From Rhodoferax sp. (GTDB taxonomy: Bacteria > Pseudomonadota > Gammaproteobacteria > Burkholderiales > Burkholderiaceae_C), in contig JAGPBF010000001.1 in assembly GCA_018063505.1 (NCBI GenBank), forward strand, positions 7,724 through 71,723: DNA of 64,000 bases, written 5' to 3'. A program made the translations under genes and the position numbers. Below, piece after piece: positions 15,533 to 60,946 of the stretch (its first letter is position 1; the number at the start of each line of letters is the position of its first letter). The notes below the pieces were generated by a model. That model was given only the letters and a program-made list of their open reading frames with translations. It made no database searches and had not been told where the DNA came from.

Positions 15533-16858
15533 TCAACATGGTTTTTCCACGCGCAAATCCATGGCGCCATGGGCCAGTGTCGCACGGACCCGCTGGTCTA
15601 CACCGACTTGCTCGGCGCGCGTGATGGTGCGGCCTTCGGCATCGGTGATCCAGGCATATCCCCGCTGCAGCACCAGCGCCGGATCGAGCAGTCCCAGACG
15701 CAACCGAGAGCGTTCGAGTCGCTCGTGCAGCCGTTCCATACCGCGTTGCCGACCGGATTGCAGGCGCATCTGCAACTGCCCCAGCGCCTGCTGCTGGCGT
15801 GCCAGCAACAAGCCCGTGGCCAGCCGCTGGCGCCGGGCCACCGAGACCAGCCCTACGCGCTGCGCAGTGGCCAGGCCTGATGGCCGGCCCAGCCGGGCTG
15901 CCGCCGCATCGACACGTTGCGCCTCCCGGTCGAGCCGGTCGGTCGCCGCCTCCTGCAGCCGGCTCTCGATCAGTTCGAGCGCGCCCAGCCAGACCTCGCG
16001 CGCAGCGGCCACCAGTTCGGCAGCCGCTGTGGGCGTTGGCGCGCGCACATCGGCAACAAAGTCGGCAATCGTGAAATCGGTTTCATGTCCGACACCACAG
16101 ACGACCGGCACCGGACTTCGCGCAATCACGCGCGCCAGCGTCTCGTCGTTGAACGCACGCAGGTCCTCGATCGAACCGCCTCCGCGCACCAGCAAGATGG
16201 CCTCGGGCGCGAGTCGCCGCGACGGCGCTCCGACAACAGCCTGCGCGGCAACACCCTCCGGCGACTCGACCAGCGCATACAGGCTCTCCAGCGCCTGGAC
16301 CAATTGCGCCGCCGCGCCCTGGCCTTGCACCGGTGCCGGCGCCAACAGCACCGGAATATGGGGAACCCGGCGCTGCAATGCAGTCACCACATCGTGCAAG
16401 GCGGCCGCCCCGCGGGACGTGACCAGGCCGATCGCCCGCGGCATCAGCGGCAATTCGCGCTTGCGCGCGGCATCGAACAGGCCTTCGCCCTGCAATTTGG
16501 CCTTGAGCCGGAGGAATTCCTCGAACAAGGCGCCGGCGCCGGCCTGACGCATGGATTCGACAATCAGTTGCAGGTCGCCGCGTTGCGCATACACGCCCAG
16601 ACGGCCCCGAACTTCAACCAGGTCACCATCGCGCACGGCAAAGTCCAGCAGGCCAGCGGCACGCTTGAACATCGCGCAGCGGATCTGGCCGGAGGAATCC
16701 TTGAGCGTGAAATAGCAGTGGCCACTGGCGGCTCGCGCGAAACCGGAAATCTCGCCTTGCACCGACACCGGATTGAAGCGCGCGTCCAACGCATCTGCCA
16801 CCGCCTGGCACAGGTCGGCAACAGCCCAGACGCGGGGCCCGGCCGGGCTCGCGCTCAT
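15533..16858 (-). CDS. xseA: Exodeoxyribonuclease VII large subunit
   Basis: SGHCYFTLKD, LVRGGGSIEDL, GVGHETDFTIADFVAD and PTPTAAAE. GGAGG precedes ATG 16858. Confidence 0.95.
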   Translation of the reverse strand: MSASPAGPRVWAVADLCQAVADALDARFNPVSVQGEISGFARAASGHCYFTLKDSSGQIRCAMFKRAAGLLDFAVRDGDLVEVRGRLGVYAQRGDLQLIVESMRQAGAGALFEEFLRLKAKLQGEGLFDAARKRELPLMPRAIGLVTSRGAAALHDVVTALQRRVPHIPVLLAPAPVQGQGAAAQLVQALESLYALVESPEGVAAQAVVGAPSRRLAPEAILLVRGGGSIEDLRAFNDETLARVIARSPVPVVCGVGHETDFTIADFVADVRAPTPTAAAELVAAAREVWLGALELIESRLQEAATDRLDREAQRVDAAAARLGRPSGLATAQRVGLVSVARRQRLATGLLLARQQQALGQLQMRLQSGRQRGMERLHERLERSRLRLGLLDPALVLQRGYAWITDAEGRTITRAEQVGVDQRVRATLAHGAMDLRVEKPC

Positions 16859-16920
16859 CAGGTAACCTCCATGCTGCGCATTGCGGAATTCGCCCTTGGG
16901 AACGGCCCGGCGGTGCTCAT
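16856..16920 (-). repeat. Junction repeat element, copy B (supplies xseA SD and start)
   Basis: ATGAGCACCGCCGGGCCGTTCCCAAG...CCGCA-ATGC-GCA-GCAT-GGAGG-TTACCTG-ATG. Confidence 0.75.
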
Positions 16921-16986
16921 CGGGCAACCTACGCCCTTCGGGCTGCGGTGCGAGCTTGCTTGGGAGCGGCCCGGCGCGACGCTCAT
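16918..16986 (-). repeat. Junction repeat element, copy A
   Basis: Bases 16934-16985 are 46/52 identical (manual alignment) to 54951-55002. Contains a GCCC-GAA-GGGC hairpin. Confidence 0.85.
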
Positions 16987-17265
16987 GCTGCCAGCCCCGC
17001 GCCACGCGCGGCAGTGCGACGCATTTTCGCTGCCAACAAACAGGATTTCATGCGCATTGCCTGGCTGCGGCGGGCAAAACCGCCCGCGCGGACCACCCGA
17101 CTACTCCACACTGCGCGACCCGGACGAGGCGCTGCCCGGGGACCCGGCCGATCGCCTGTATTCACGCCACAAGCTGTTGATTTAACTGAACTTTTCACTG
17201 CTCTATTTCTCATCATTCCAAGCCCGGGCCGCATGAATGCAGGCCTGAGCCGGTTTTCAGCCGGG

Positions 17266-17300
17266 TTTTGCACAAAGTTATCCACATGTTCTGTGGGTGA
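17266..17300. promoter_or_regulatory. DnaA-box cluster
   Basis: Perfect TTATCCACA at 17278-17286, flanked by TTTTGCACA (17266-74) and inverted TGTGGGTGA (17292-300), each with 2 mismatches. Confidence 0.5.
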
Positions 17301-19515: not shown

Positions 19516-19678
19516 ACTGCTGGTTTGCCCCGTCACCAAGGGGCCACTGGAATATGACCGTGAGCGCCAGGAAATGCTGTCCCGCAGCGCGCGGCTGGCT
19601 TACCCGGTCCGCGACGGCATCCCGGTTCTGCTGGAAAACGAGGCGCGCACGCTGACCGACGATGAACTGGGCTTGTGA
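19496..19678 (+). CDS. Trm112/YcaR-like protein
   Basis: [11 protein letters not shown]...[11 protein letters not shown], in the canonical lpxK-kdsB position. Confidence 0.93.
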
Positions 19679-19740
19679 GCCGCCTGGTGGTTCCCAAGAC
19701 GCATCGCACCGCAATGCGCAACTCGGAGGGTAGCGCGGTG
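19675..19740 (+). repeat. Junction repeat element, copy C
   Basis: GTGAGCCGCCTGG..TTCCCAAG..TCGCACCGCAATGCGCA..GGAGG-N8-GTG. Begins on the trm112 stop codon. Confidence 0.7.
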
Positions 19741-19847
19741 CGTCACCTGTCCGTGCCACAGGCCTCTCGTGCTGCACAGTTATGCCGCCACACGATTGAC
19801 GCCCGTTGCGGAGCCATTCGCAGGATGGCGCTGCCGGTCGCCATGCG

Positions 19848-20639
19848 ATGACATTCACCGTCCTGATCCCTGCCCGGCTGGCCTCTACACGCCTGCCCAA
19901 CAAGCCGTTGGCCGCCATTGCCGGCGTACCCATGGTGGTGCGCGTGGCACAACGCGTCACCCCTGCGCCCGGATCGGGTGCGATACGCGTGGTGGTGGCC
20001 GCCGACGACCACGCGATCATCGACGCCTGTGCCGCCTACGGAATCGAGTCGGTATTGACCCGTACCGACCATGCCTCGGGCAGCGACCGCCTGGCCGAGG
20101 CTTGCGACCTGCTGGGCCTCGATGACAGCCATGTGGTCGTCAACGTGCAGGGTGATGAGCCGATGATCGATCCCCTGCTGGTGCATGCCGTGGCCAATCT
20201 GCTGCACGAGCGGGCAGACACCCGCATGAGCACGGCAGCACATCCGATTGCGACGCTGGAGGAATTTCGCAATCCGAATATCGTCAAGGTGGTCATGGAC
20301 CAGCAGCGCAACGCGCTGTATTTCAGCCGCGCGCCGATTCCATTGGCGCGCGACCATCCCGACGATGCCTGGTGGTCACTGGCCCCGACAGCGGCCAACG
20401 AACTGCTGCGCCAGGCCGCGCCGATGCGCCATATCGGCATCTACGGCTACCGGGCCGGCTTTCTGCGCCTGTTCCCGCAACTGGCGCCTGCGCCGCTGGA
20501 GCGCGCCGAAGCGCTCGAGCAATTGCGCGCGCTCTGGCATGGCCATCGGATCGCTGTACATGTGACCGACAGCGATCCGGGCGCGGGCGTAGACACCCCA
20601 CAGGACCTGGAGCGCGTCAGGCTGCTTTTTCGCAAATAA
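19848..20639 (+). CDS. kdsB: 3-deoxy-manno-octulosonate cytidylyltransferase
   Basis: [34 protein letters not shown] and LEQLRAL. Confidence 0.96.
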
Positions 20640-34863: not shown

Positions 34864-34950
34864 GCGCGGGTGGCGGAATTGGTAGACGCCCGGGACTTAA
34901 AATCCCGTATCCGAAAGGGTGTACGGGTTCGATTCCCGTCCCGCGCACCA
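34864..34950 (+). tRNA. tRNA-Leu (TAA)
   Basis: GCGCGGG/CCCGCGC acceptor, CGGGA-CT-TAA-AA-TCCCG, long variable arm, TTCGA and CCA. Confidence 0.95.
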
Positions 34951-35490: not shown

Positions 35491-35564
35491 TGGAGGCGCG
35501 ACCCGGAGTCGAACCGGGCTGATCGGATTTGCAATCCGGTGCATAACCGCTTTGCTATCGCGCC
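35491..35564 (-). tRNA. tRNA-Cys (GCA)
   Basis: GGCGCGA...CCGGATTGCAAATCCG...GTTCGACTCC...TCGCGCCTCCA, 74 nt. Confidence 0.96.
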
Positions 35565-35648: not shown

Positions 35649-35724
35649 TGGAGCGGGAAAAGAGTCTCGAACTCTCGACCTCAACCTTGGCAAGGTTGCG
35701 CTCTACCAACTGAGCTATTCCCGC
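35649..35724 (-). tRNA. tRNA-Gly (GCC)
   Basis: GCGGGAATAGCTCAGTTGGTAGAGCGCAACCTTGCCAAGG...CCCGCTCCA, 76 nt. Confidence 0.97.
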
Positions 35725-41993: not shown

Positions 41994-42080
41994 TGGTGCG
42001 CGGGGGGGGACTCGAACCCCCACATCCTTGCGGACGTCAGGACCTAAACCTGGTGCGTCTACCAATTTCGCCACCCGCGC
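41994..42080 (-). tRNA. tRNA-Leu (TAG)
   Basis: GCGCGGGTGGCGAAATTGGTAGACGCACCAGGTT-TAG-GTCCTG...CCCGCGCACCA. Confidence 0.95.
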
Positions 42081-54788: not shown

Positions 54789-54953
54789 ATTTCTTGGCAC
54801 CATTACGAGGGCCTCAAGAACATCTACCACAAGGAACTGGTCAAACGCTCGGCCCTGGCGCGTATCGTTGCCGCATGGCTGATCACGGTGCCGGTGTCGG
54901 CCGTGATGGTTGCGATGATCTACTACATGATCCTTGGCATGATGTTGCCGTGA
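54789..54953 (+). pseudogene. 3' remnant of a PiT-family inorganic phosphate transporter
   Basis: Manual translation ...GLKNIYHKELVKRSALARIVAAWLITVPVSAVMVAMIYYMILGMMLP* resembles the PiT C-terminus (AAWxITxP). There is an in-frame TAG at 54786-88 and no start before the motif. Confidence 0.75.
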
Positions 54954-55018
54954 GCCCCGCGCCGGGACGCTCCCAAGCAGGGTCGCACCGCAGTCCGAAG
55001 GGAAACGACAGCCGGATG
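54950..55018 (+). repeat. Junction repeat element, copy D
   Basis: 46/52 identical to copy A. Starts on the GTGA of the PiT stop; the next ATG is exactly 66 nt later, as in copy A. Confidence 0.85.
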
Positions 55019-58076: not shown

Positions 58077-59161
58077 GCGCCTCTCCTTGCGCCCAGCCGG
58101 GCCGCCGCGCGCAGGCGCAGCCGCCCCACCACACCGGTCGGGAAGTAATACACCGACAACACGAACAACAAGCCGAGCCAGAGCAGCCAGCGCTGCGGCG
58201 ACAGCAAGGATGACAACCACGGCAGGTTGCTGGTCGCCTCGCTGCCCAGCCGCAACAAATCCTGCAGGTAACTTTGCGCCACCATGAACAGCGCAGCGCC
58301 AATGGCCGCCCCGTACATGGTTCCCATGCCGCCGATCACCACGATCAGCAGCACATCCATCATGATCTCGAACGACAGCGACGTGTCCGGCCCGTTGTAA
58401 CGCAACCAGACCGCCAGCATCGCCCCGGCCACGCAGGCGAACAGGGCCGACAGGATGCTCGAAATCGTGCGGTAGACCACCACCCGGTAACCGATGGCCT
58501 CGGCGCGAAACTCGTTTTCGCGGATCGCCTGCAGCACCCGGCCAAACGGCGAGTTGACGATGCGCAGCAGCGTGAGCAGCACCAGCAGCGCAACGATGAA
58601 CAACACGTAGTACGACAGCAGGCGCCCGTCGATCGACACCCCCAGGAACGGCTGCTCCAGGAATTCGTGACTGGGCTGCAGGATCGTCGGCGCCTTGAAC
58701 GTGAGTCCGTCCTCGCCACCGGTCCATTCGGACAACTGCGACGCCAGCGTCAGGAAGGCCGAGGCCACGGCCAGCGTGATCATCGCAAAAAAGATCGCGC
58801 GTACCCGCAGTGAAAACAGGCCGATGACCAGCGCCAATACGAACGACAGGCACAGCGCCGCACCGAGTCCGACCAGCAAGGCGTCCCATCCCGGCCCCAT
58901 GCGCGTGCTGGCAATGGCGATGCCGTAGGCGCCGATGCCAAAGAACATGGTGTGCGCGAAGCTGACGATGCCGGTGTAACCCAGCAACAGGTCGAAACTG
59001 GAGACCAGCACCACGAATACCAGCACCTTGGCCGCGACGTTGAGCGCCTTGACACCTGGAAAGATGAACGGGGCAAAGGCCAGCGCCACCAGCAGCGCCA
59101 CCAGCAGGATGGCCAGCACACGGCTGCGCGGCAGATCGTTCGACAACAGGCGATCTAGCAT
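58073..59161 (-). CDS. Liv-type ABC permease (LivM-like)
   Basis: SFAHTMFFGIGAY, TGGEDG and SPFGRVLQAIRENE. Confidence 0.93.
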   Translation of the reverse strand: MLDRLLSNDLPRSRVLAILLVALLVALAFAPFIFPGVKALNVAAKVLVFVVLVSSFDLLLGYTGIVSFAHTMFFGIGAYGIAIASTRMGPGWDALLVGLGAALCLSFVLALVIGLFSLRVRAIFFAMITLAVASAFLTLASQLSEWTGGEDGLTFKAPTILQPSHEFLEQPFLGVSIDGRLLSYYVLFIVALLVLLTLLRIVNSPFGRVLQAIRENEFRAEAIGYRVVVYRTISSILSALFACVAGAMLAVWLRYNGPDTSLSFEIMMDVLLIVVIGGMGTMYGAAIGAALFMVAQSYLQDLLRLGSEATSNLPWLSSLLSPQRWLLWLGLLFVLSVYYFPTGVVGRLRLRAAARLGARRGA

Positions 59162-59244
59162 GCAGCCCTCCGTTGGATGCGGGCTTGTGCAGGCAAGGCG
59201 TGAATCCGGTTGCGCATGGTCAGCTTCTCCCTTGGGCGGGTCAT
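59159..59244 (-). repeat. Degenerate junction element between the two Liv permeases
   Basis: ATGA (on upstream stop)..CCCAAGGG..ATGCGCAAC..CGGAGGG-CTGC-ATG. Shares motifs with copy C. Confidence 0.45.
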
Positions 59245-60224: not shown

Positions 60225-60946
60225 ATGGCCAGCCCCAGCAGGGATTTCTGCAGCGCGGCATCGTCGGACAAGGCCTGCATGCTGCCGGCATGTACCACCT
60301 TGCCGTTGTCCATCACCGCCACGGTATCGCCCAATTTCTGTGCAAAGCGGATGTTCTGCTCCACCAGCAAAATCGTCACGCCGGTGGACTTGAGCTCGGC
60401 GAAGGCACTGATCATGTTGTTGATGATGGCCGGTGCCAGGCCCTTGCTTGGTTCGTCGATGATCAGCAGTTCGCGCGGTTCGACGATCGCCCTTGCCACT
60501 GCCAGCATCTGCTTCTGGCCGCCGGACAACTTGCCGGCCGGATGGTTCCAGAACTTGTGTACCGCCGGAAACAGCCCGAAGATCCATTCCAGACGCTGGC
60601 CGTCCATCTGGCTTTCGCGGGCCGCACTGCGCGCGGCGAGCAACATGTTCTCGCGCACCGTCAAGTCGGAAAAAATACCCATGTTCTCGGGCACGTAGGC
60701 GATGTTGCGTTCGGCGATCTCGGGCGTGGACAACTGCGTGATGTCCTGCCCGGCAAACGTCAGCCGGCCCTGGGACGCACGCCACAGGCCAAGAATCGTG
60801 CGCAGCGTCGTCGTCTTGCCCGCGCCATTGCGACCGAGCAGCAGCGTCACCTCGCCCCGGGGCACGACCAGATCGACGCCATGCAGGATGTGGTAGGGCC
60901 CGATGTGCGTGTGCACACCCGACAAGGCCAATAGCGGTGTGCTCAT
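60221..60946 (-). CDS. Liv-type ABC ATPase (LivF-like)
   Basis: GRNGAGKT, LSGGQ and DEP. Confidence 0.95.
   Translation of the reverse strand: MSTPLLALSGVHTHIGPYHILHGVDLVVPRGEVTLLLGRNGAGKTTTLRTILGLWRASQGRLTFAGQDITQLSTPEIAERNIAYVPENMGIFSDLTVRENMLLAARSAARESQMDGQRLEWIFGLFPAVHKFWNHPAGKLSGGQKQMLAVARAIVEPRELLIIDEPSKGLAPAIINNMISAFAELKSTGVTILLVEQNIRFAQKLGDTVAVMDNGKVVHAGSMQALSDDAALQKSLLGLAI

Follow-up and report, generated by a model that had tools for sequence, protein, structure and literature searches.

The 64,000-nucleotide stretch of the Rhodoferax sp. contig JAGPBF010000001.1 analyzed here (hereafter, the window) contains, at three sites, four copies (A, B, C, and D) of a short repeat that begins at a start codon and ends with a small hairpin, a Shine-Dalgarno (SD) sequence, and another start codon. 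Judging from sequence comparisons, we consider it likely that these copies belong to a dispersed, non-autonomous family of Comamonadaceae repeats that enter genes between the start codon and the second codon and thereby would keep the downstream gene translated. An earlier note on this DNA had suggested a portable translational coupling module of this kind. Its main inference is supported by the present analysis and the observation itself is partly confirmed, with the caveats, among others, that copy D is stranded and that a fifth proposed copy, E, is not a member of the family. The source organism is known solely from wastewater and activated-sludge DNA metagenomes and metagenome-assembled genomes (MAGs).

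The relationship among the four copies, which the earlier note had proposed, is significant by two kinds of models. A profile hidden Markov model (HMM; nhmmer) built from copies A-D and searched against the 64-kb window recovered all four with E-values between 2.5e-16 and 3.3e-14, the next-best match in the window having an E-value of 3.3. A covariance model (R1), built from 78 copies (74 from other genomes plus A-D) and run over the window with the filters off, scored A at 92.9 bits (E = 4.5e-25), D at 63.0, B at 47.1, and C at 45.2 bits, and delineated four copies at three sites; neither model yielded any further credible family match in the 64 kb. The core TCCCAAG-N8-CACCGCA occurs three times in the window, against 0.02 occurrences expected, and all four copies open with RTGAGC, as had been noted. 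Copies A and D indeed each span 66 nt from the start codon to the next in-frame ATG and share one layout, which in A reads ATGAGCGTCGCGCCGGGCCGCTCCCAAGCAAGCTCGCACCGCA-GCCC-GAA-GGGC-GTAGGTTGCCCG-ATG; they are identical at 45 of the first 52 nt, rather than at 46 as previously counted, and at 54 of 69 overall.

The putative degenerate copy E (59159-59244, minus strand) was rejected. It is undetected by the HMM and the covariance model even at E<=10, and its pairwise alignments are no better than those of shuffled sequences against A, C, and D, and marginal against B (21/300). The segment is an ordinary 80-nt spacer between two permease genes. It follows an ATGA stop/start-like overlap belonging to a branched-chain amino-acid permease gene, and its own SD, GGAGGG, lies before the second of the two genes. 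B and C also contain CCCAAGGG and ATGCGCAAC, equally spaced; the resemblance is statistically non-significant, and the segment could at most be a very old relic of the family.

Beyond the window, a scan with an exact 17-base core (TCCCAAG-N5-TCGCACCGCA), covering one genome for each species, yielded at least 115 loci. About 107 of those listed bear the family, nearly all in Comamonadaceae and chiefly in Hydrogenophaga; the other host taxa among the matches listed are Rhodoferax, Variovorax, Giesbergeria, Simplicispira, Alicycliphilus, and Burkholderiales MAGs. About eight listed core matches in unrelated phyla are missing the flanks and were discarded as chance matches. The two core matches in Mycobacterium or Mycolicibacter (L025, L045) are without family flanks and look like chance matches in other sequence. 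One copy resides on pDCB2, an IncP conjugative plasmid of Diaphorobacter, and Variovorax megaplasmids carry others. No family match was found among 2.9 million viral contigs, and the family is therefore not phage-borne. In four wastewater metagenomes, the summed depth over the unit is 10-190x that of the flanks, and many contigs end at the unit. The sequences flanking the retrieved loci contain about 1.3 further arrays per 100 kb, compared with the three sites in the 64 kb of the window; genomes probably carry from one to tens or hundreds of copies, the upper range being a rough extrapolation.

Several observations made in the course of this survey stand apart from the question of spread. Sequencing runs X34-X37, labelled as transcriptomic RNA-Seq of Alicycliphilus and compared with locus L056, assemble to ~5 Mb with contigs of up to 52 kb and flat depth; they behave like genomic DNA and are therefore uninformative on transcription. 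The search for RNA-seq and ribosome-profiling data turned up no usable set. In L098 (120-290), a unit without its 5' half borders on an AT-rich stretch that contains (A)ACTTGCAGCTTAT three times; this stretch looks like one end of a different mobile element, which has repeated sites resembling transposase-binding sites and inserted into the unit. In L092 (3805-3857), a 5' half-unit is followed by ~50 nt with CCCCCTTGGGGGG, a different small palindrome, and then by a full unit that opens with GAG, not ATG; this arrangement may represent either a rearranged array or a further family of small repeats. We considered the partial copies in L098 and L092 as termini of a larger autonomous element and dismissed this possibility, given that they look like copies interrupted by other sequence.

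The family consensus reads (C)ATG/AGCGCCGCGCCGGGCCGYTCCCAAGCMAGCTCGCACCGCA-GCCC-GCA-GGGC-GAAGG-TACTCCA-GTG/AGC, where the slashes mark the ends of the unit. The unit is 66 nt long in 60 of 99 copies and 65 nt long in 30, with a range of 62-66 nt across the family, and is arranged in arrays of one to three direct units, two to three being common. The 7-nt spacer ahead of the RTG varies freely, whereas CGCCGGGCCG and the AGG of the SD, both outside the search pattern, are still at least 90% conserved. Subfamilies track host lineages such that the stem GCCC/GGGC predominates in Hydrogenophaga, and the stem GTGC/GCAC together with the 65-nt length is found in Alicycliphilus, Simplicispira, Giesbergeria, and Variovorax.

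The structural feature that the analysis supports is the short hairpin, which lies 12-14 nt from the 3' end of the unit. The stem covariation that the earlier note had seen between A and B holds family-wide: across 78 distinct copies, the four pairs formed by alignment columns 47-50 with 54-57 are complementary in 96.8% of the cells, with compensatory changes at all four (for example, CG 43 and UA 27 at one pair, and CG 40, GC 30, and UA 4 at another), and none of 500 shuffles matches this. Controls with a slid register pair in 26-51% of the cells only. RNAalifold recovers the same 4-bp helix and, in addition, a GGG/CCC stem (columns 18-20 and 26-28) that is nearly invariant and hence uninformative. 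The loop is GCA or GAA, closed by C-G; loops of this cGNAg type are very stable in DNA. Counts of wobbles and mismatches do not discriminate an RNA hairpin from a single-stranded DNA (ssDNA) hairpin. The suggestion that the SD is partly paired with an upstream ACC was abandoned, RNAalifold and covariation both failing to support it, and whole-unit RNA folds of A-E are no more stable than those of shuffled sequence (z from +0.3 to +2.0).

A short conserved hairpin raises the possibility of repetitive extragenic palindromic (REP) or REPIN-type elements, that is, short palindromic units spread by a RAYT (REP-associated tyrosine transposase; HUH Y1) enzyme, with the position at gene junctions being incidental. 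HUH enzymes recognize ssDNA hairpins, and the covarying stem with its stable cGNAg loop, the apparent lack of a target duplication, and the insertion 3' of a short fixed sequence all agree with this scenario. The layout does not. No inverted pairs were found among 117 arrays, no two arrays on either strand lie within 400 nt of each other, and all merged tandem arrays are direct and co-oriented; the stem comprises only 4 bp, the consensus lacks a GTAG-type head, and the copies are located at gene starts rather than in 3' extragenic spacers. A repeat search detected no inverted repeats, terminal or otherwise, in A, B, or D, and in C only the internal pair CGCACCGC/GCGGTGCG. Rfam reported nothing but four tRNAs in the whole window at the gathering threshold and, at an E-value threshold, a spurious best match (E = 0.9) at the A/B locus. 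Lacking inverted pairs, terminal inverted repeats, and an Rfam match, the family is not REP-like, in this respect departing from the earlier note, nor does it resemble miniature inverted-repeat transposable elements (MITEs); we regard a REP/REPIN origin as very unlikely.

The position of the units relative to genes is far from random. Coding-like open reading frames (ORFs) were called from ORF length and GC content at third codon positions (GC3). At 62 of the 86 first-in-array copies (72%), the upstream coding-like ORF ends in the TGA of the 5' NTGA, whereas among the unoccupied RTGAGC hexamers of the same loci (n=979), an upstream stop is present at 40 (4%), and 19 are stop/start junctions. 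The hexamer alone is therefore insufficient to explain the position, and the dispersed, non-autonomous family on RTGA junctions that had been postulated from the window is apparent beyond it. Among the remaining first-in-array copies, 18 of the 86 have no abutting upstream ORF, like A and B, and five look intragenic and in frame. At the other end, the 3' RTG opens an ORF of >=100 aa with GC3 >=0.75 in 64 of the 79 last-in-array copies, compared with 27% for random RTGs; several of the 15 exceptions are borderline or have decayed units after them. Annotated junctions include mrpC-mrpD in Alicycliphilus and phnJ-phnK in Variovorax, and on pDCB2, a 65-nt unit exactly fills the gap between the coding sequences of an ABC ATPase and an acyltransferase.

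The two boundaries of the unit differ systematically. Both sides are flanked by RTG(AGC), but the 5' codon is host-like (ATG 87, GTG 8, TTG 3, resembling natural starts) and the 3' codon is rich in GTG (GTG 55, ATG 40); AGC almost always follows the 5' codon and is fixed there only, being found after the 3' codon in 67 of 99 cases, with other A-initial codons common. This asymmetry is as expected if the 5' start codon is the host's and the unit, from AGC to RTG, is located between codons 1 and 2, and it argues against a target duplication produced by a staggered cut. An SD-like run precedes the 5' start at 48 of the 86 sites, by a loose SD pattern for which no control was computed. Of the unoccupied NTGA junctions, only 20% have AGC as second codon, so that AGC reflects a real target preference; by contrast, a C at position -1 was rejected as part of the target because 68% of the unoccupied NTGA junctions also have it.

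We followed the ORF from the 5' start codon in 127 distinct copies. This mini-ORF continues in frame into the downstream ORF in 76 of these, stops within an RTGA (-4 overlap) in 42, and stops within a TGATG (-1) in two, such that 120 of the 127 copies (94%) are either frame-continuous or stop/start-overlapping, as would be expected of units built to relay ribosomes, the function ascribed to them in the earlier note. In three copies, the mini-ORF stops <=12 nt upstream, and in four it runs past the start out of frame, one of the latter being D, through a script mis-assignment. Accordingly distributed are the unit lengths modulo 3: 0 in 77, 2 in 45, and 1 in five copies. The one-base deletions that yield the -4 class fall in at least four different alignment columns, so the frame bias is not merely the product of one amplified master.

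The same DNA is read as MSAAPGRSQASSHRSPQGEGTP, MSARRAVPKQARTAVRSTEVTQ, or MSTAGPFPRANSAMRSMEVT across the subfamilies; frame continuity, not the peptide, is therefore what is conserved. A conserved N-terminal peptide or tag under protein-level selection could be imagined given that 66-nt units keep the frame and have been made part of some annotated proteins: in the PGAP annotation of Variovorax PhnK, it forms the first 21 residues, before the conserved SHPLLRV... start, and the copy in L119, which has lost its 3' start (ATA), must be read through as an N-terminal extension. Such selection is nevertheless extremely improbable, as the 65- and 62-nt subfamilies use other frames (MSAAPGRSQ..., MSARRAVPKQ..., MSTAGPFPRA...), and a search of 5.8 billion proteins with a tandem-repeated translation of the consensus retrieved 11 short hypothetical ORFs only. 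This search gave no useful estimate of the breadth of the family, because gene callers mostly start at the 3' RTG.

With regard to mobility, sites without a unit and loci that differ in unit number are both present. In an alignment of the window with L003 and two near-identical contigs (96% mean column identity), L003 is without A, showing an exact 66-nt gap bounded by ATGAG, and has B only, compared with A plus B in the window. In L131, where ExbB is 96% identical, the xseA start reads AGGAG-N8-ATGAGC-ACG, with no unit, and among 80 orthologous exbB loci from metagenomes, units are found in the same-species contig only. More than 45 orthologous ycaR-kdsB junctions are without copy C. Many of them show CTGTGAGCTTC, in which, precisely at the position of C, stop and start overlap as GTGA and kdsB opens with GTG-AGC. 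Comparison with these outgroups polarizes B and C as gains. Elsewhere, L123 is empty and L023 filled, the empty site in L123 reading TCCAATGAGG, like the 3' end of the unit; L069 is empty (ATGAGCCTGATC) and L119 filled; and L084 has one unit where L083 has three, within flanks that are 96-99% identical. A 62-nt skip variant that joins B and A was found in two metagenomes. Across more than 100 other loci, then, further copies, enrichment at RTGA junctions, and empty sites in relatives all came to light, as one would expect of the mobile family that the earlier note envisaged. In another genome, two units lie at the ycaR-kdsB junction (L117:7440-7579), which is the junction of copy C; the site has either been used repeatedly or was filled by an old insertion common to both genomes.

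These variants bear on whether any dedicated enzyme is needed. Host recombination, slippage, and microhomology-driven template switching between RTGAGC/SD-like sequences could, in principle, produce a minisatellite seeded at gene starts. The tandem arrays do vary in copy number and include recombinant units (L083/L084 and the 62-nt skip), and the target, RTGAGC preceded by an SD, resembles the unit ends; the empty site in L123 is already similar to the 3' end. It is hard, however, to see how microhomology alone would place near-identical 66-nt units, in lineage-specific subfamilies, at many unrelated loci in several genera. In addition, the 5' two-thirds of the unit, including CGCCGGGCCG, is strongly conserved without having a translational role, and the covarying hairpin suggests that some factor recognizes it. 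Spread without an enzyme thus appears possible, if rather doubtful.

The explanation that we favor, insertion followed by continued translation of the gene, runs as follows. The unit lies at (C)RTG/A(GC) sites, mostly ATGA or GTGA stop/start overlaps. The upstream TGA stop is retained because the first base of the unit is A, and the original start codon and SD of the host stay in place. The 3' end of the unit brings the GNA-loop hairpin, an SD (GAAGG or GGAGG), and, 7-9 nt on, a new RTG. The original start codon would now open a mini-ORF of 21-22 codons across the unit. In 66-nt units, this mini-ORF would run on in frame, so that the protein would either gain 22 residues at its N-terminus or be initiated internally, at the new RTG. 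In the units of 65 and 62 nt, its TGA would overlap the new start (RTGA or TGATG), recreating a termination-reinitiation junction. Either way, ribosomes would be handed on, such that the insertion should be nearly neutral for operon expression, and we propose that copies persist because of this near-neutrality. The arrays would subsequently expand and contract by recombination or slippage.

As for the insertion itself, the asymmetric junction without a true duplication seems to fit a conservative or ssDNA-type reaction better than staggered-cut transposition, and the fixed insertion point 3' of a short sequence, combined with the subterminal hairpin, is compatible with an HUH/ssDNA or a conservative site-specific mechanism; the units would presumably be mobilized actively and in trans. 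One can go further and suggest, tentatively and with considerable doubt, that placement at the (C)RTG/AGC stop/start overlap is an active process directed by a sequence- or structure-guided enzyme, that a large fraction of these junctions in Hydrogenophaga would already be filled, and that the hairpin and SD may have been co-opted to set subunit ratios. Candidate enzymes would be an HUH nuclease that recognizes hairpins or else a guide-RNA recombinase, with a 66-nt circle or ssDNA as the intermediate. If true, this would be a mobile element that has a translational coupling site as its niche, in a genetically tractable proteobacterium.

Alternatively, the units might be host-selected cis-regulatory RNA modules, bound by a trans-acting protein or small RNA that tunes the downstream cistron, with mobility being secondary. 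The core is strongly conserved across genera, the hairpin lies immediately 5' of the SD, and the units occupy operon junctions of multi-subunit systems (mrpC-mrpD, phnJ-phnK, ABC transporters). The downstream genes are, however, functionally unrelated, close relatives differ in the presence of a unit at the same gene, decayed and stranded copies (C and D) are tolerated, and there is neither an Rfam family nor any structure beyond the 4-bp stem. Taken together, these features make a primarily regulatory role unlikely.

A number of points weigh against the interpretation of the units as start-codon-inserting repeats that keep genes translated. Within the window, B is the one copy from which a gene directly takes its SD and start: C falls 105 nt short of kdsB, D is without a downstream gene, and A and B are in the 5' leader of xseA, not between co-directional genes. 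The outgroups polarize only B and C; the indel of A is ambiguous and could be a deletion between the ATGAG repeats. The frame bias could stem in part from the amplification of a few master subfamilies, and it is from frame statistics that we infer the translation of the mini-ORF and the neutrality for expression. The set of at least 115 loci listed is subject to ascertainment bias, being skewed toward the exact core and toward Hydrogenophaga, and since the loci were retrieved by the exact 17-base core, the conservation of the core columns is partly circular. The gene calls behind the position statistics are heuristic rather than curated. In at least one genome (Alicycliphilus), the unit is a single copy, by comparison with the sequencing run of that genome. 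Finally, no mobilizing gene was identified, whole genomes not having been scanned for RAYT/Y1 HUH (PF01797).

The gene context in the window was derived from gene calls on identical contigs, ORF lists, and Pfam (Table 1). The divergent genes xseA (minus strand) and exbB (plus strand) are separated by a 542-nt spacer that contains copies A and B, directly 5' of xseA. Copy B terminates at the xseA ATG (16858-16856), with its GGAGG 8 nt upstream of this ATG, and the mini-ORF through A and B ends in a TGATG overlap with xseA, exactly as the earlier note had read it. The same note had placed C, D, and E on the stop codon of the upstream gene, which is correct for C and D and no longer pertinent for E. 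The GTG of C (19675-19677) overlaps the TGA stop of ycaR/Trm112 (19676-19678), and the called start of kdsB is at 19848, 170 nt downstream; the ~105 nt of non-family sequence that separate C from kdsB (19741-19847, plus strand) are crossed by an open ORF, and in most relatives the ycaR-kdsB spacer is a direct GTGA overlap or <=50 nt. In the case of D, the TGA stop (54951-54953) of a PiT/PHO4 transporter remnant lies inside the GTGA of the copy, and another stop codon precedes the remnant, which is probably a pseudogene left by a rearrangement that also stranded D. On the opposite strand, the 3' end of slyD faces this copy, which therefore lacks a downstream gene.

Table 1 Coordinates of repeat copies and associated features in the window
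Feature	Position	Strand	Description and basis
Copy A	16918-16986	-	66-nt unit plus 3' ATG; in-frame type; covariance model
5' ATG of copy A	16986-16984	-	
3' ATG of copy A	16920-16918	-	doubles as start of copy B
Hairpin of copy A	16933-16943	-	GCCC-GAA-GGGC, 4-bp stem and GNA triloop; sequence and family covariation
Copy B	16856-16920	-	62-nt unit, shorter subfamily; covariance model
Hairpin of copy B	16871-16881	-	ATGC-GCA-GCAT
SD of copy B	16866-16870	-	GGAGG
42-codon ORF through A and B	16858-16986	-	from ATG of A; stops in TGATG, -1 overlap with xseA start
xseA	15533-16858	-	exonuclease VII large subunit; host gene whose start is the target of A and B; Pfam Exonuc_VII_L, E 9.4e-83
Copy C	19675-19740	+	decayed hairpin, SD GGAGGG present; covariance model
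58-codon ORF	19675-19851	+	opens at GTGA overlap with ycaR, crosses C and 105 nt of non-family sequence, stops in kdsB ATGA
PiT/PHO4 phosphate transporter C-terminal remnant	54789-54953	+	54 codons; Pfam PHO4 profile positions 324-349 of 350, E 0.001, below curated cut-off
Copy D	54950-55018	+	66-nt unit plus 3' ATG, decayed SD; covariance model
Hairpin of copy D	54993-55003	+	GTCC-GAA-GGGA, weakened
tRNA gene	34864-34947	+	Rfam
tRNA gene	35494-35564	-	Rfam
tRNA gene	35652-35724	-	Rfam
tRNA gene	41997-42080	-	Rfam

Two further features of the window were recorded. At 60943 (minus strand), two coding-like ORFs meet at a stop/start junction, ACG-ATGAGC-ACA, whose ATGAGC is unoccupied and could serve as an empty target. 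In the xseA-exbB spacer, a 34-nt block (17266-17299; CACCCACAGAACATGTGGATAACTTTGTGCAAAA on the minus strand) is kept in nearly all diverged relatives aligned, unlike the remaining spacer, and contains a perfect DnaA-box consensus, TTATCCACA, at 17278-17286 (plus strand); metagenome X2 shows a depth spike at 17248-17300.

Among known systems, the closest parallel is with MIRUs, or mycobacterial interspersed repetitive units. As summarized in passages of a 2025 review (PMC12548453) that draw on Supply et al. 1997, MIRUs insert at start codons and contain an internal ORF coupled at -4 spacing. By the same account, they are short (~40-100 bp) dispersed units that form variable tandem arrays between co-directional genes in the same orientation, with presumably little effect on expression and with a mobilization mechanism that is unexplained (PMC12548453). 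In each of these respects, the family described here is similar. The differences lie in the hosts, which are Comamonadaceae/Burkholderiales (Betaproteobacteria) and not Mycobacterium (Actinobacteria), such that the two are likened by description, no sequence relatedness being expected. We know of no report of a majority 66-nt in-frame form, or of a covarying cGNAg hairpin beside the SD, in MIRUs. Indeed, the majority form here (76/127) is in frame with the gene, with the -4 overlap that those passages describe for MIRUs accounting for 42 of the 127 copies.

Other small repeats are similar in fewer respects. The start-associated sequences (SAS) of Cluster K mycobacteriophages are ~13 bp long, are phage-borne, and are not known to have an internal ORF, a hairpin, or insertion polymorphism. 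They do, like the units described here, constitute conserved repeats just upstream of many start codons (PMC3203893). REP/REPIN elements, which have RAYTs as their transposases, are like this family in being short, abundant, and specific to lineages, in having a conserved hairpin, and in not encoding the means of their own mobility; REPs, however, are longer palindromes (~20-40 nt) with a conserved head, typically arranged as inverted pairs in extragenic 3' spacers, in contrast to the direct, gene-oriented units with a 4-bp stem found here at start codons. Rickettsia palindromic elements (RPE) and enterobacterial repeats of the RU/ERIC type are also small and non-autonomous, and their length and frame are tolerated within coding sequence (PMC2759123), as appears to be the case for the five of 86 copies that look intragenic; they are palindromic or MITE-like, without specificity for start codons or stop/start overlaps and without an SD and start codon of their own. 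Mini-elements derived from IS200/IS605 (PATE-like) have subterminal hairpins at both ends and insert, without duplication, 3' of a fixed tetra- or pentanucleotide; an insertion 3' of the start codon without a true duplication would fit this, one covarying hairpin is present near the 3' end, and the candidate 5' GGG/CCC stem, being nearly invariant, is uninformative. A functional analogy, limited by the contrast between an engineered cassette and a natural dispersed element, exists with the synthetic bicistronic design (PMC12548453), given that in the 65- and 62-nt units a leader ORF with an SD inside it overlaps the downstream start through RTGA or TGATG.

We searched the literature for the core sequence, for repeats of Comamonadaceae, and for mobile repeats of intercistronic type, and in none of these searches did a description of the present family come up. 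The novelty claimed in the earlier note therefore applies to the family and not to the kind, which has a precedent in the MIRUs as portrayed in the cited passages of the review (PMC12548453). By analogy, we view the family as a putative proteobacterial counterpart of MIRUs, of a kind already known, with the family itself undescribed in the literature searched. To our knowledge, start-codon-inserting repeats with a coupled mini-ORF have been described for MIRUs only, and how MIRUs find start codons and spread is unexplained. The Comamonadaceae units offer an independent case, with polymorphic sites, lineage subfamilies, two frame solutions, a covarying hairpin, and a copy on an IncP plasmid, and because their hosts grow fast and some of the genera are genetically tractable, start-finding and spread are testable there. 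In practical terms, the units break metagenome assemblies and cause inconsistent start annotation, as illustrated by the N-terminal extension of PhnK as opposed to the gap on pDCB2, and they could be used as strain markers of the variable-number tandem repeat (VNTR) type. Set beside the known systems, they are MIRU-like and probably mobile repeats in a different bacterial phylum and, at the same time, natural examples of the bicistronic design used in synthetic biology.

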